DNA from: a virus
Lineage: Duplodnaviria; Heunggongvirae; Uroviricota; Caudoviricetes
IMG/VR virus record: IMGVR_UViG_2648501165_000011
Reading direction: 5' to 3' (one strand)
DNA length: 22,255 nucleotides
Both the position numbers and the translations under genes were made by a program. Below, one piece after another: positions 8,135 through 18,678 of this stretch. The notes below the pieces were generated by a model that made no database searches, had not been told where the DNA came from, and saw nothing but the letters and a program-made list of their open reading frames with translations. How positions within the stretch are numbered: the stretch's first letter is position 1; every line of letters starts with the position of its first letter.

Positions 8135-8971
8135 TCAGAAGTCAGCCAGTTGATCGGAGGCTGCGCCCGTTGCGGTGAACCGGTTCTGCGGATCGCCGTC
8201 CTGCGTGCGCAGTTTTTCCTTCAGTGCTGTCAGCTCTGTGGTCAGTAAAGTGATTTTCTGGCTGTCCTGCTGATGGCGGGTTTCCAGCGCATTAAAACGG
8301 TCGATAATGTCGGCCTGTGACGTTGCGACACCTTCCACCGCTTCCTGAATACGGGAGAAACTGGCGTCATCCGCTTTGCGGCCACGGCCAATAATCCCCA
8401 TAACGCGGTTAAACCACTGGGTGCCTTCTTCCTGACGTTGTTCGGTGAGTTCGATAAGTTCTGACTCCATAGCGGCGGTAAACATCGCCACGTCTCCCTG
8501 CTGACAGTTGAATGTCATCAGTTGCATACGTTGTTGTGCCGCAAAGGCCAGACGTTCCGTGCCCAGGCTGGCAGGGGTGTCGGTCATTGCCAGCCCGCGC
8601 AGGTAAGGGCCTCCCGTGATGGTTGACTGTGGTTCCAGCTCAATACTGGAGTAAATTTTTTTACCATCGTTAAGCAGGGACATCATGCGAGCGGTCGGCT
8701 CAATTTCGGCATACAGTGCCGTGCGGCCTGCCAGCGGGCCATCGGTTATGTCTTCGGCGCTCAACCCCACAACATCGCCCATAGCGGAAAACTCGCTACC
8801 GGGGAGTGGTGACAGGATGTGCTCAATATTCACACGTGCACCATAAACGGACGGGTTATAACTGGTGGCGGCAGCTTTCAGCATGTCGCCGTTGATTTCG
8901 CGCCCGTCTGCCGTTACACCGGAGACAGCCACGCGAAACTTTTTGCGGGATGTCTTTTTTTCATTAGCCAT
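8135..8971 (-). CDS. O: Capsid scaffolding protein (P2 gpO-like)
   Basis: ORF 8135..9004; likely start ATG 8971 (MANEKKTSRKKFRVAVSG...) with GAGGGG upstream. VTDTPASLGTE and the coiled-coil C-terminus resemble gpO. Confidence 0.85.
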   Translation of the reverse strand: MANEKKTSRKKFRVAVSGVTADGREINGDMLKAAATSYNPSVYGARVNIEHILSPLPGSEFSAMGDVVGLSAEDITDGPLAGRTALYAEIEPTARMMSLLNDGKKIYSSIELEPQSTITGGPYLRGLAMTDTPASLGTERLAFAAQQRMQLMTFNCQQGDVAMFTAAMESELIELTEQRQEEGTQWFNRVMGIIGRGRKADDASFSRIQEAVEGVATSQADIIDRFNALETRHQQDSQKITLLTTELTALKEKLRTQDGDPQNRFTATGAASDQLADF

Positions 8972-14420: not shown

Positions 14421-14794
14421 GTTTCCACTGGTCAGGCCACCCCGCAGCAGGTCTGCTTTGCGGCGGGCGCGTTCAGTGGTTTCACTGATTCTCTGTGCGT
14501 GCTCTGCGTCGCGGATGGCGCGCAGCATGTCAGAAAGCACGGTAACGGGTGTTTTCATGGTGTTCTGGTCTTGCTGAAGTGTGGATGCCAGGCGTGCGGC
14601 GGCTTCGGGGTCTGATGCCCCCAGCTGTTCCAGATAGCTGGCGACCGGGTTATGGCGGATCTCCGTGCTGCTTACGCCGTGGTTACGGCTCAGGCGCTGC
14701 CAGAGCTGCGTGATTCGGCTGTCCGGGCGGGTATCCGGTTTGCGTACAATTTCAAATCCCTGCGGTGCAATGATGCTGCCGTCAACGTACAGGC
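14355..14794 (-). CDS. ORF of unknown function whose 5' end lies in the assembly gap (could be a separate gene or the frame-shifted C-terminus of gpA)
   Basis: Open frame reads from the N-run to a stop at 14355. Translated segment (...EIVRKPDTRPDSRITQLWQRLSRNHGVSSTEIRHNPVASYLEQLGASDPEAAARLA...) is protein-like, but its C-terminal 20 codons run through the parC palindrome, so its true extent is uncertain. Confidence 0.3.
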
Positions 14795-14828
14795 NNNNNN
14801 NNNNNNNNNNNNNNNNNNNNNNNNNNNN
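14795..14828. other. Run of 34 N (assembly or scaffold gap of unknown true length)
   Basis: Directly visible in the sequence. Confidence 0.99.
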
Positions 14829-17139
14829 ATTCTTTAGCGAGTAATTCGTGGTTATCAGGCAAAGGCCGCTGCTGTTTGCGGCTCTGTGTCCAGCTCTGCA
14901 TTTCATCACTGCTGTTTTTTGCCTGTTTGTCACGAAGCGAACGCATCAGCGCCCGGCGTTCGTGCCGTTTCAGTGAGCGCATCCATTCGTTCACTTCAAC
15001 GCCGTCAGGGAGCTGCGGCCACGGTGCTGGCCGTTCTTCCGGCTGTTCTGTCCCGTTGTTGTCCGTTTCCTGTACACGGGGACAGTTATTGCCACGAGTC
15101 CAAGGGGCGGCAGGGCCGCCCTGAAGGTCAAAACCATTTTCGCGGGCGCTGTCTTCCGTTTCCGGTTTACGTCTTACCAGTTTCCAGTTATCCGGATGCG
15201 TGCACACACGGGAGGATTCCCCGATGAGTGGTGACCAGATCCCGTAAATCTGTACGCTCTGTTCGCCGTAATCATTCAGCTCATCTGCGAGGTCGTAGGC
15301 GGTGCGAATCAGGTAGTCTTTGCGTGGAACAAGTACGCCGCCCTGTTTTTCAATGTAGGTGGCAAAACACCCGGCATCGGCGGCAGCGAGTACCGCATCC
15401 ATTGCGTCATCTTTCAGTCGTTGCGGGCCTTCCGGGTTGCGTGCCATCTGGCTGGCAAGGCGGCGCAGTTCACGCCACACCTGACGGGAGGGGATGCCAA
15501 AGAACTGGAACTGGCGGACCCGATGAAGGCGCGCCCAGCCGATGGCGCGCTCCACACTCTCGACCATTGATTTTCCGGTTTCGTGGTCAACGCGTGGCTT
15601 GCCCGTTTTCGGGTCGATGCCATCCACGGCGCGGCTGTCCAGGTTCTTTCCGATGTAGGTCGCGATATAGCTGGTTGGTGTGCCTTTTGAGCCGTCGACA
15701 TACTCCGCCTTAAAGCGCGGAGTAATATCATTGCCCAGCTCGTGGCGGTCTTCCTGAATGGCAATATCGCGGGTGATGGCCACGATGCTGTCGATTTCTT
15801 CCGGATGAGCAAAGACCATCATATGCCAGTGCACGGTGCCGTCATGGTGAGGCTCCACCGTGCGGATGCCATACCAGCGAAGACCGTCGCGGTTCAGTTT
15901 TTTGCGGACCGCCGCAAAAAACGTGTTAACCAGGTAATCACTGGAGTCGCGCATGGTGGACCCGTTCCATTTGGGGTTCGGATGACCGTTCTCTGTTGTG
16001 GCGTGGTATTTTGACGGGCAGGTGACAGTCAGAAACACCGCTTTGTCGCCACGGGCTTCGGCCAGAAGTTCCAGCCCCTTCATGGTGGCCATCATTTCTG
16101 CCTTACGGTGAACCGGGTTACTTACTCCCGCGTAATACACCGTCTCGAGATCAAACGTGAACCCGTCTTCATTTTCCAGCATGAAACTTTTCAGGAAATC
16201 GCGTGTTTTCTCGCGCTGTGCGCGAAACTCGCTTAACGCGTCCTGGCTCAGATAGGGCGATGTTTTTCTGGAAACCAGACAGGCGGCGCGGAGTTGTTCT
16301 TCTCTCCACTCGCAACGTAACAGCCACAGTTTGCGTTTCCACCATTCTGCACAGGTCAGGCGAAGGATTGCGCCCGGCAGCAGCTCCGTGTCCGGTTCGT
16401 TCCTCCGGTCTTTGTCTGTTGTCAGTGCGTCATAATGTGGAGGCATGGCGTGCAGGTGTAACGCCATGCGGGCCAGCATCTGATACGCCTTCAGCGTTAC
16501 ATCCATGGTCAGTTCGCCATCGGTCGCGCCAAAGCCATCGCAGAGTTTTTCGAAGGTGCTGCTGAACATCGCCGCCGTCATGGTGGCCAGTGTCTGTATC
16601 TGGTGTTTGTTGAGCTGCGGCAGGTAAAGCAAATCGTCCAAGCGTTCGCGTCCGGCAAGGGAGCGATAACCCTGTGTCAGCCAGCGGTGATCGGTGCGCT
16701 CCAGACGTTCGAATATTTTGCGCAGGTTTCCGCGCGCGTAGCGTTCAGCCTGCCAGCTCTTTTTGCCTTTCTGACGATCGGCTTCCTGTTTTTTGCGCAG
16801 GAAGGAGAGGTGGCGAATAAGCGGATCGCGCAGATAGGACGGCAGCAGGCGCAGCGAGGCCATGGCTTCATCCACCGCGCCGCGTGCCTGTTTTCTGGCA
16901 TCTCCTGCCAGTGTGATGGTTTTGTCCTGTTTTTCCTGTGCGTCCAGGCTTTTATTAATCAGGTTGCCCAGCGGCGTTGCGGAGAACGCCGCATCAGCCA
17001 TTTCCTGGCGGTGCTCGTTCTCTACCCGGTAGGCATCCAGCCAGGAGGAAAGCGCGGATTCAGGAGCGGGGATCCCCGTTCCTTCACGCCCCACTGCGTG
17101 GCGCGGTTGTTGCCAGTCCCTGATGTACTCTGCCGTCAT
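14829..17139 (-). CDS. A: Replication initiation endonuclease (P2 gpA-like, HUH rolling-circle nickase); 3' end interrupted by the N-gap
   Basis: About 770 aa before the gap; HUH-type motif EPHHDGTVHWHMMVF and Tyr-rich active-site region GTPTSYIATYIGKN, typical of P2 gpA-family proteins; ATG 17139. Confidence 0.85.
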
Positions 17140-17145
17140 AGTGAT

Positions 17146-17511
17146 TTACTTCGTCATGCCATTCAGGGTGTCGCGGCAGACTGTAGCCAGCCGCTGAATT
17201 TCCAGCACGGTGTCTTCTGTGTCGGCATGGCGATGTGTGATGCGGATGCTGTCGGCAATCACATCGACGATTGCAGAGGATGGGCGCTGGTAAATGCCAA
17301 TAACGGACGGGGTGCCACCTTCAATGCGGTAAAGCCTGTAATTTCCCTCGTGGCTGTCAATCATGTAGCGACCATCAATAACAATCTTTCCGTCAGCGAG
17401 CTGCGGTACAGGCAGGGATTTCAGGTACATGTCATAACGATCACGCACGCGAGCGGCAAGATCACGTTCTGTGTTGAGCAGGTATTCAAGAAAGTCGTTG
17501 GCGAGAATCAT
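17146..17511 (-). CDS. Hypothetical protein (121 aa) directly upstream of A
   Basis: ORF with AAGAGGA RBS before ATG 17511; compact non-repetitive composition; no motif recognised. Confidence 0.5.
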   Translation of the reverse strand: MILANDFLEYLLNTERDLAARVRDRYDMYLKSLPVPQLADGKIVIDGRYMIDSHEGNYRLYRIEGGTPSVIGIYQRPSSAIVDVIADSIRITHRHADTEDTVLEIQRLATVCRDTLNGMTK

Positions 17512-17583
17512 TGCGGCAATCCTCTTGTTACAGATGTGCGAAGGCCTCCCGCCGCAAGGTGCAGGAAAGGCCCGGAACAGGAG

Positions 17584-17814
17584 TTAATGGAGTTTGTTTT
17601 GCTGCTGGATGAGCTGTTGAAGCTCGTGCAGATCATCCGCCAGATAGCTGAAAACAGAGGCGGAATAAATGTTTGATAGTGCGTGGCTGCGCTCATGCAG
17701 CATATTGATGTGCATGATTTGCGCGACGCGTGATGCGCGGGAAAGTCTGCGGTTGATTTCAGTCTGGATGTGACGACGCTCCGCGATAGCGCGGTGTGGT
17801 TTGCGGTTTGCCAT
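17584..17814 (-). CDS. Hypothetical small basic protein (76 aa)
   Basis: ORF with AAGGGG RBS 7 nt before ATG 17814; helical, Arg/His-rich, no Cys; no family recognised. Confidence 0.4.
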   Translation of the reverse strand: MANRKPHRAIAERRHIQTEINRRLSRASRVAQIMHINMLHERSHALSNIYSASVFSYLADDLHELQQLIQQQNKLH

Positions 17815-17993
17815 GGTGTGGCCCCTTGTGTAGTAAGTTGTGAAAACTCACCATCCAGAGCTGCGAAACTGTGGGTGGCGAGACGTACGAGGTTCGCAGT
17901 ACCGGCTACACAAGAACCCGGCCCGACCGAAGTCGGCCCCGTACGCCCCGCCATAATTCTGACGCGAAAAAAACGTGGCAATACAGTACGCAC

Positions 17994-18014
17994 AAAAAAA
18001 CCGCTGGCGCGGTT
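17994..18014 (-). terminator. Intrinsic-terminator-like hairpin (AACCGC-ggcc/tggc-GCGGTT) followed by U7 on the minus strand, inside the early operon
   Basis: Read on the reverse complement: stem then TTTTTTT; lies in a 320-bp non-coding gap between the 99-aa and 76-aa ORFs. Confidence 0.45.
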
Positions 18015-18136
18015 GTGCGCTTGTGTAGTCAGCAGGCTGCGAAACCCGGCACCCGTTTTGTGAGGTGCAGCGGAAATGTAACCTGACTGATTGCGGCATG
18101 GCAAGCGGTTTTTTTGTGTGTGCATGTTCTGGTTTC

Positions 18137-18436
18137 TTAGTGGTTCAGAAAAAAATCAAAAACCTTGTCAATGCGTTGCAGCAGCTCTTGCTGTATTGCT
18201 TCCGGCGTTTCCGGTTCGCCTGGCGCCTCCAACGTCGCGCAGAAATCCTCGATTTCATGACGGAGCGTCAGGCGAATGGCGAGAGGTGTGGTTCTGGCGT
18301 GCTCCAGCTCATCCAGCAGCGCCAGCACAGCAGACGGCGAGAGCATTGCGCGAAACGCCAGTAATTTTTGAGGCGTTGCCATTCGTTGCAGGTCAGTCGC
18401 CAGTTCGCGTAATTCCTGGTGGTTGATGGCGCTCAT
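18137..18436 (-). CDS. Hypothetical protein (99 aa), acidic/helical
   Basis: ORF whose ATG 18436 overlaps the upstream stop (ATGA coupling); no motif recognised. Confidence 0.5.
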   Translation of the reverse strand: MSAINHQELRELATDLQRMATPQKLLAFRAMLSPSAVLALLDELEHARTTPLAIRLTLRHEIEDFCATLEAPGEPETPEAIQQELLQRIDKVFDFFLNH

Positions 18437-18678
18437 GCTCTGGCTTCCTTCAGTAGCTGGTTAAACATGTTGGTAAGTGGATTGCCGCACCCGAACGGCA
18501 TCGGGTTTATCTGGTAAGAAAAGCGACCGCCTGTTTTGCGCTCTTTTCTTATGACTGAACCGCTGCGCCAGAGTCGGCGTAACTCCGCATTAATGGCTGT
18601 GGTTGGGGTATTCAGTGCTGCGGCGATTTCTCCACCGCTACACCCCGGATTGGCGGCGATATAGTCCAGAATGGTCAT
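18433..18678 (-). CDS. Putative winged-helix DNA-binding protein (81 aa)
   Basis: MTILDYIAANPGCSGGEIAAALNTPTTAINAELRRLWRSGSVIRKER resembles a wHTH (MarR/ArsR-like recognition helix plus wing); translationally coupled to its neighbours. Confidence 0.45.
   Translation of the reverse strand: MTILDYIAANPGCSGGEIAAALNTPTTAINAELRRLWRSGSVIRKERKTGGRFSYQINPMPFGCGNPLTNMFNQLLKEARA

Follow-up and report, generated by a model that had tools for sequence, protein, structure and literature searches.

Two small RNAs in a gap of the early operon

The window analyzed here is the whole 22,255-nucleotide (nt) stretch of the virus record IMGVR_UViG_2648501165_000011 (Caudoviricetes), which carries a P2-like phage, and our subject is a gap inside its early operon (positions 17815-18136). 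The genes on either side both lie on the minus strand: a 99-amino-acid (aa) Ead/Ea22-like open reading frame (ORF) ends at 18137, and a 76-aa ORF begins at 17814. A sequence-only reading of the window had singled out this gap as a regulatory node with iterated motifs, an inverted repeat, and an internal promoter and terminator. When the whole window was scanned against Rfam at the gathering threshold, only two matches were returned, both in the gap, both on the minus strand, adjacent to each other and full length. The first was isrK (RF01394; 18068..17994, 64.1 bits against a gathering score of 50, model positions 1-77 of 77) and the second was C4 (RF01695; 17958..17871, 83.2 bits against a gathering score of 45, model positions 1-87 of 87, E 2.6e-15). 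Both scores exceed those of the well-known family members, as the CI RNA of P4 and the c4 RNA of P1 reach 74.9 and 68.8 bits with the C4 model and the P4 leader reaches 60.8 bits with isrK. The small structured RNA that had been suspected in the gap is in fact two, one IsrK-like and one C4-like, and the proposed check by structure prediction and covariance came out in its favor, with full-length matches to both models and a family-like fold.

The IsrK-family leader, a small RNA (sRNA) at 17994..18068 on the minus strand, is predicted from the Rfam match and the fold to have a pair of hairpins at its 5' end, an unpaired stretch, and a Rho-independent terminator. Directly upstream, at 18075..18104 on the minus strand, lies a sigma-70 promoter with a -35 element TTGCCA (18104..18099), an 18-nt spacer, and a -10 element TACATT (18080..18075); the promoter scan placed the transcription start near G18068. 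The -35 and -10 elements were invariant and the spacer was variable across the 47 related modules described below, and the equivalent promoter position is also filled in P4, P1, and lambdoid relatives. The terminator (17994..18014, minus strand; AACCGC-GCCA-GCGGUU followed by a U run) was evident in the fold, and the terminator scan recovered the same minus-strand hairpin and U-run at 18014..17994 that had been pointed out before. The leader thus combines a full-model isrK score, its own promoter and terminator by sequence, and complementarity to the C4 RNA downstream, and the promoter and terminator scans, together with the conserved -35 and -10, bear out the view of the gap as a node with both signals inside it. 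Two sites in the leader carry this complementarity, named a1 and b1 after their counterparts in P1. The a1 site (UUCGCAG, 18037..18043, minus strand) sits in IsrK hairpin 2, and the b1 site (CUACACAAG, 18020..18028, minus strand) lies further along the same RNA.

The C4-family antisense RNA (17871..17958, minus strand) consists of a long closing stem and two hairpins. Its minimum free energy (MFE) fold (-47.7 kcal/mol, z -4.46) independently reproduced the family consensus structure. The flanks AAUUAU|GG on the 5' side and GCCACC on the 3' side are shared with P1, for which the ends of the mature RNA have been annotated, and by this homology the mature C4 is predicted to span about 17952..17874. 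P1 nomenclature calls the junction strand a' and the hairpin loop b'. Here b' is CUUGUGUAG (17906..17914, minus strand) in the 12-nt loop of hairpin 2, the specificity loop, and a' is CUGCGAA (17893..17899, minus strand) in the single-stranded junction from hairpin 2 to the closing stem; they are the complements of b1 and a1, respectively. Both find a second set of partners in the mRNA downstream, with a perfect 9-nt complement (17833..17825) and a perfect 7-nt complement (17867..17861). The a2 target (UUCGCAG, 17861..17867, minus strand) is located in the mRNA leader 4 nt past the end of the Rfam match, and the b2 target (CUACACAAG; 17822..17833 on the minus strand when taken with the Shine-Dalgarno sequence) occupies 17833..17825, where it overlaps AAGGGG (17827..17822), the Shine-Dalgarno sequence of the 76-aa gene. 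This gene has its AUG at 17814, 8 nt beyond the Shine-Dalgarno, and the C4-b2 duplex reaches into the Shine-Dalgarno by two G.U pairs.

These four target sites and two C4 elements account for the iterated motifs. The 22-kb window has exactly three copies of the motif CTTGTGTAG, at 17825(+), 18020(+), and 17906(-), where 0.07 would be expected by chance, and none of 100 shuffles reached this number. The second motif, CTGCGAAAC, has copies at 17861(+) and 18037(+), with a shorter form, CTGCGAAC, at 17892(-). All copies were found where the sequence-only reading had put them and they go beyond chance, and its remark that the first one touches the ribosome binding site of the 76-aa gene is borne out by the position of b2 on the Shine-Dalgarno. 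The copies occupy the loop and junction that C4 leaves unpaired and the complements of these on either side of C4, and they are RNA-RNA pairing sites rather than protein operators.

Two further signals in or next to C4 were considered and rejected. A separate C4 promoter just before it, TTGCCA-17-AATTAT (17981..17953, minus strand), has as its '-10' the conserved AAUUAU found ahead of the RNase P site in P1 and in every relative; most of these relatives have TCGCCA as the '-35', and transcripts begun there would lack part of the closing stem. A terminator-like match at 17931..17917 was spurious, as it corresponds to C4 hairpin 1 and a U-rich loop. Just past a2, the stretch GGAUGGUGAG (17847..17856, minus strand) can pair with the 3' strand (17874-17882) of the stem that closes C4, and in unprocessed transcripts the two are predicted to form a conserved alternative hairpin that displays a2 in its loop. 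An analogous complementary pair of different sequence is present in the P4, lambdoid, and PhiR12_3 groups.

Covariation of loops and targets

A DNA pattern taken from C4 hairpin 1 retrieved 120 viral contigs, a sample that is biased towards this C4 subfamily, from which 123 copies could be used, representing 28 loop/junction alleles; the 76-aa protein as a query in genome contigs yielded only three close relatives. About 85 of the 123 copies sit beside an epsilon gene and gpA, as in P2-like phages, five are in P4-like elements with alpha, and about 32 are lambdoid. From the epsilon-linked copies we built an alignment (A1) of 47 unique modules, to which the following counts refer.

The pairing between C4 and its targets was almost completely maintained. 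Between the C4 loops and a2/b2, 98.1% of alignment cells were paired, compared with 70.0±1.1% when columns were shuffled and 36-50% when the registers were slid; double changes were found in 11 of 16 pairs, with 177 compensatory cells. The same was true for a1/b1, where 98.0% of cells were paired and double changes affected 12 of 16 pairs (175 compensatory cells). G.U wobbles made sense only as minus-strand RNA. The pairing columns are nevertheless the most variable part of the module, with a pairwise identity of 65% vs 91% for the rest. The alleles of the two elements recombine freely, with at least 14 for b' and 7 for a' giving 22 specificity classes; P88, for example, has CUGUAGUUG/UGUGGAAA as b'/a', where the window has CUUGUGUAG/CUGCGAA. 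The predicted duplex energies separate these classes: cognate partners reach -24.4±1.9 kcal/mol, partners that share one element reach -16.2±2.2 kcal/mol, and those that differ in both reach -9.6±3.2 kcal/mol. Judged from the alignment, covarying loops and targets of this kind are the signature of a specificity determinant, and divergence of this sort is known on a small scale between P1 and P7.

This covariation bears directly on whether the repeats might act as DNA. As operators or iterons for the MarR-like winged-helix protein, C, or Cox, they would turn the gap into a promoter/terminator node under protein control or an accessory site for replication, and the presence of three copies per motif, direct and inverted, within 220 bp, with a winged-helix gene 300 bp upstream, is what such a reading would predict. 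However, the copies coincide exactly with the parts that a C4 fold of high score leaves unpaired, its loop and junction, and with the known target positions of C4; inverted copies change together with their direct counterparts so as to stay complementary, with G.U pairs tolerated only in the minus-strand RNA sense; and P4, P1, and lambdoid phages have the same architecture although this winged-helix protein is missing from them. Covariation as RNA complements counts against DNA-binding sites, and we give the operator or iteron explanation very little credence. The operator sites that the sequence-only reading had entertained for these three proteins are thus better seen as RNA partners, and no evidence emerged for the replication or packaging accessory role that it also listed.

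We also weighed whether the gap might be a protein gene, intact or decayed, of the Ash family (PF10554). A mechanical 205-aa ORF (18125..17508, minus strand) spans the gap and matches Phage_ASH at 26.5 bits against a cutoff of 26; RefSeq/PGAP places an 'ash family protein, incomplete' pseudogene coding sequence (CDS) on the homologous stretch in some E. coli genomes; and the ash frame is open in 46 of the 47 modules. Against coding, the number of variable columns per codon position is 30/30/30 in every frame, with no codon periodicity, and in the regions of a1, a2, and the loop some alleles differ by indels of 1-2 nt. Moreover, the ORF overlaps the entire 76-aa gene in a different frame, the variation keeps the RNA pairing intact, and the historic 'cI gene product' CDS of P4 overlaps the CI RNA in the same way. 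The codon-position pattern, the indels, and the RNA-type covariation led us to reject the ash ORF as coding, and an Ash gene in the gap is highly improbable. The mutations of P4 called cI or ash were shown to lie in an RNA gene. To judge from their sequences, the Phage_ASH family with its pseudo-CDS and the old P4 'cI gene product' CDS look like artefacts of translating an RNA. The earlier statement that the gap holds no convincing ORF therefore stands as regards coding signal, with the caveat that the 205-aa ORF lies just above the Phage_ASH cutoff; likewise, a disrupted ORF of the kind named as a possible refutation does exist superficially, as the RefSeq pseudo-CDS, yet it has no coding signature and leaves the region unexplained.

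Annotations of this type recur over IsrK and C4: a Phage_ASH match or 'ash family protein' covers the pair in the window (17508-18125, minus strand) and in the records L139 (1501-1764) and L001 (8168-8584). In lambdoid and Stx-type records, the anti-repressor, Rha, or 'peptidase' CDS is often annotated with a long N-terminal extension that runs through IsrK and C4, as in L010 (1141-2292; Rha of mEp460), L009 (1146-2297), L007 (1273-2295), L008 (1141-2286), and L011 (1147-2304). The true start of these extended Rha or anti-repressor CDSs is probably the AUG just past b2 (MAT...).

The epsilon-like gene and a proposed immunity circuit

The 76-aa gene (17584..17814, minus strand) would be the first cistron under C4 control. 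Its product matches the Pfam family PF25738 'Derepression' at 32.5 bits (cutoff 27) and shares 29% identity with P4 epsilon (E 4e-9). The ORF list places two further cistrons in the same transcription unit (14782..17511, minus strand), a 121-aa ORF (17511..17146) and replication gene A (17139..14782), and no terminator or promoter was found between these downstream cistrons in the scanned part. The gene A product matches Phage_GPA at 435 bits and is an endonuclease of the P2 A type rather than a primase like P4 alpha. The repressor of the element is a homologue of P2 C (37% identity, E 1e-22), and the element also carries Cox and an integrase. Two other assignments were discarded: the repressor has no similarity to 186 CI and is of the P2 C type instead, and the 121-aa ORF has no similarity to P4 orf151. 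A run of 34 N at 14795-14828, near the 3' end of gene A, produces a stretch of X in its translation.

The RNA family matches, the fold, the complementarities, the covariation, the promoter and terminator signals, the placement of b2 on the ribosome binding site, the homologies of the downstream genes, and the class of the repressor support reading the gap as a minus-strand module of the P4/P1 type, in which two RNAs control immunity and an anti-repressor, and we regard this reading as very probable. In the circuit that we propose, the constitutive-looking internal promoter (about 18104..18075) would be active in the lysogen and start the IsrK leader near 18068. Most transcripts would stop at the intrinsic terminator at 17994 to leave a short IsrK-like RNA containing a1 and b1, and read-through of this terminator, or read-in from the upstream early operon, would yield a C4-containing precursor. 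As in P1 and P4, C4 would be excised from this precursor by RNase P and 3' trimming. Mature C4 would then pair through loop b' and junction a' with b2 and a2 directly downstream, and because b2 overlaps the Shine-Dalgarno, translation of the epsilon-like 76-aa derepression protein would be blocked, with the 121-aa gene and replication gene A perhaps lowered as well through polarity. P4 epsilon is known to target repressors of the P2 C class, to which the resident repressor belongs by homology, and the module may therefore work as a second, RNA-based layer of immunity that, like immI of P1, silences an anti-repressor in the lysogen.

The a1 and b1 sites are predicted to bind the same C4 loops and could act in either of two ways, as a decoy that relieves repression, as over-expressed IsrK does in Gifsy-1, or as a co-target that aids termination, like seqA of P4. 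In the MFE structure of the unprocessed read-through transcript, a1 and b1 pair in cis with the C4 loops, an arrangement that corresponds to 'structure A' of the Gifsy-1 system (PMC4825925).

The co-target option leads to a variant of this circuit, not exclusive of it, in which the C4-like RNA would act mainly as a transcription-termination factor as in P4, pairing with a1/b1 (equivalent to seqA) and a2/b2 (equivalent to seqC) of the nascent RNA; an early stop before epsilon and gene A would then amount to true replication immunity. The leader indeed matches isrK, the family of the P4 seqA leader, rather than the c4-a1b1 family of P1, and the order leader-C4-epsilon-replication gene parallels that of P4, where the CI RNA has been described as terminating transcription through pairing with seqA and seqC (PMC4825925) and an IsrK-like element is required for lysogeny (PMC3632133). 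However, the position of b2, right on the Shine-Dalgarno and 8 nt from the AUG, resembles that in P1 with its annotated translational effect, no terminator-like element is present downstream of a2/b2 on the minus strand of the scanned region (17500-18500), and the replication protein is of the P2 A type, not P4 alpha. We consider a predominantly P4-style termination mechanism possible, though rather unlikely.

Several points weigh against the two-RNA control circuit as we have drawn it. All of its functional claims are drawn from homology and covariation, and we infer the anti-repressor activity of the 76-aa protein from an epsilon homology of only 29% identity. An efficient-looking terminator stands between the promoter and C4, so that C4 could be made only from transcripts that pass this terminator or arrive from the early promoter. 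Published work on P4 and on Gifsy-1 does not agree on the sign of the a1/b1 effect, which could make these sites a decoy or a co-target, and polarity on gene A is conjecture. There are also imperfect alleles. In the class with b' UCUGCGUUUG (loci L100, L040, L093, L033, and L042; A1 columns 209-217 / 292-300), pairing with the b2 site, CACACGUAG, is broken by one mismatch and includes one G.U pair, and the b1 site, CAAACGUAG, shows only the G.U; this class may be a partly de-repressed or escaping variant. In one locus, L019, a1 is mismatched.

The inverted repeat noted in the gap adds a further element to the leader. The 15-nt repeat CACAAAAAAACCGCT is exact (17991-18005(+) and 18104-18118(-)) with 0.00 expected by chance, as had been claimed, although the second arm lies 1 nt away from where it had been placed. 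The two arms bracket the promoter and gene of IsrK. The 3' arm (18005..17991) is the descending arm and U-tract of the IsrK terminator. The 5' arm (CACAAAAAAACCGCU on the transcribed strand; 18104..18118, minus strand) is an A-tract in the UP-element position of the IsrK promoter, at about -36 to -49, and since it lies upstream of the -35 it is contained only in transcripts that read in from upstream. In the MFE structure of such a read-in RNA both arms pair with each other (-55.5 kcal/mol, z -4.3). The 5' arm is conserved in relatives, with variants in six modules that are not compensated. A classical antiterminator was rejected on account of these uncompensated variants and of the kinetics, as the 5' arm would need to compete for the terminator 3' half and U-tract, which emerge last. 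An UP element, an RNase III or other processing site, and an origin-dependent bypass of the terminator are the candidate roles for the repeat. One possibility is that it ties terminator use to where transcription started, such that read-in RNAs would be refolded or cleaved and promoter-proximal ones would end short.

Distribution and comparison with known systems

In its DNA sequence, the window matches Xuanwuvirus P884B11 at 100% identity and phage P88 at about 87-91%, and no RNA gene is annotated there. In the early regions of P2 and 186 we found no Rfam match even at E<=1. The suggestion that the motifs might be conserved in P2/186-like phages is thus only partly upheld: the module is absent from P2 and 186 themselves, whereas the pairing is kept in 47 related modules. 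Given this absence, the module is a feature of the Xuanwuvirus/Sp13-like branch and not of P2-like phages generally. Within E. coli it is common, as 1,153 of 5,426 complete genomes (21%) carry it, nearly always on the chromosome and either unannotated or labeled 'ash family protein'. The carriers include the ST131 and O157 lineages, and some genomes have up to four copies. One record stands apart by its label: a 226-kb contig assigned to 'Vagococcus sp. WN89Y' (NZ_JBQPOM010000071.1; L016) holds an enterobacterial P2-like module whose epsilon-like gene is 88% identical to that of the window, and the attribution to this Firmicute is probably due to assembly contamination or mislabelling.

The breadth of allele diversity leads us to propose, tentatively, that the cassette may serve as a fast-diversifying, combinatorial RNA immunity 'barcode', which would silence the anti-repressor, and perhaps the replication gene, of relatives with the same barcode and let others escape. 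P4-like satellites carry the same two RNAs before their own epsilon, so the cassette may have moved between helpers and satellites, and the barcode could play into exchange or conflict between them. If this were true, copies that reside together in one genome should always differ in their a'/b' alleles. For annotation, a testable circuit can now replace 'hypothetical protein', 'ash family protein', or a blank in about one in five complete E. coli genomes, and it offers a mechanism by which an epsilon-type anti-repressor could be silenced in P2-like prophages. The co-varying loop and target alleles also constitute a natural set of orthogonal RNA-RNA pairs for studying how the specificity of RNA immunity diversifies.

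An epsilon-like gene has been discussed before in this branch. Sp13, a P2-like prophage of E. coli O157 Sakai, has a C-type repressor without a peptidase motif and a P4 epsilon-like gene, and the latter was proposed to explain its unexpected inducibility by mitomycin, as epsilon binds the P2 repressor (PMC2669165, Asadulghani et al. 2009). RNA genes upstream of epsilon go unmentioned in that report. We found the module at about 89.5% identity in O157:H7 genomes, where it may lie in Sp13 itself. Our literature searches returned no description of the RNA module in P2-like phages.

The closest parallel in architecture is P4. It has the same pair of Rfam matches in the same order on one strand, isrK on the seqA leader (8692..8615) and C4 on the CI RNA (8507..8420), and this pair lies upstream of epsilon, orf151, and alpha in an immunity region ordered PLE - seqA leader - CI RNA/seqB - seqC - kil/eta - epsilon - orf151 - alpha. 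Like the window, P4 has a promoter directly 5' of the leader, a terminator-like hairpin that closes the leader, a loop and junction complementary to one upstream and one downstream pair of sites, and an epsilon homologue followed by a replication gene. Unlike in P4, epsilon in the window follows C4 after 57 nt, without kil/eta ORFs, the spacer between leader and C4 is 35 nt rather than 107 nt, the specificity loops differ, and the replication gene is of the P2 A type. The alpha replication gene that defines a P4-type immunity operon is missing, even though an epsilon homologue is present, and the module sits in the early operon of a complete helper-type phage of the P2 kind, which has a C repressor and Cox of its own and for which the module is not the primary immunity. 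The module would work like P4 immunity but belongs to no P4-like element.

P1 provides the parallel in function. Its immI region, like that of P7, is ordered P51a/b - a1 b1 - c4 - a2 b2 - icd - ant1/2, the P1 record labels a2/b2 as 'repression of icd ant translation', and the c4 module controls an anti-repressor as a second layer of immunity beside a protein repressor. The window shares the C4 fold, the pairing of a'/b' with a1/b1 upstream and a2/b2 downstream, and the placement of b2 on the ribosome binding site of a small first ORF. Its loop and target sequences differ from those of both P1 and P4. Its leader scores as isrK, whereas P1 gives C4 together with c4-a1b1 (RF03163), a family with no gathering-score match in the window; it controls an epsilon-type 76-aa protein in place of icd-ant, and no C1-type operator is evident. 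The module is thus not of the immI type defined by P1.

The third parallel is the IsrK-C4 system described for P4 and lambdoid prophages (PMC3632133). In 14 of 14 diverged phage and prophage loci isrK and C4 stood in tandem, and the IsrK and C4 block of the window aligns at 67-73% identity to about 90 lambdoid/Stx-type phages, all of those tested having both Rfam matches. In these phages, the pair is found between a cII-like gene and the anti-repressor or Rha gene, just before the replication genes. The Gifsy-1 IsrK-STnc1160-anrP locus of Salmonella is known for read-through of the IsrK terminator (PMC4825925, Hershko-Shalev et al. 2016), and IsrK and STnc1160 are expressed in all conditions in the Gifsy-1 lysogen (bioRxiv 10.1101/787010). 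Hfq binding and the partial read-through that gives a long mRNA isoform are known for Gifsy-1 IsrK only (PMC4825925). The Gifsy-1/lambdoid loci have an IsrK sRNA with its own promoter and leaky terminator, a stable processed RNA complementary to IsrK, and an anti-repressor gene, in this order, and the window is predicted to share this arrangement, with the epsilon-like gene as a putative anti-repressor. In Gifsy-1, however, the C4-equivalent stretch was read as the translated orf45 and IsrK as an activator in trans, and the controlled protein is a large one of the Ant/Rha type that turns on antQ, whereas in the window a small epsilon-type protein and a rolling-circle replication gene take that place.

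Set beside P1/P7, P4, and Gifsy-1, the RNA families, their tandem arrangement, and the mode of action were already known, and the conceptual advance is small. The module is an ordinary yet clear instance of a known phage RNA switch that had previously gone unannotated; what it adds to these systems is an IsrK-C4 cassette that would guard an epsilon-type gene in the early operon of a P2-like, helper-type phage, together with the breadth of its allele diversity.

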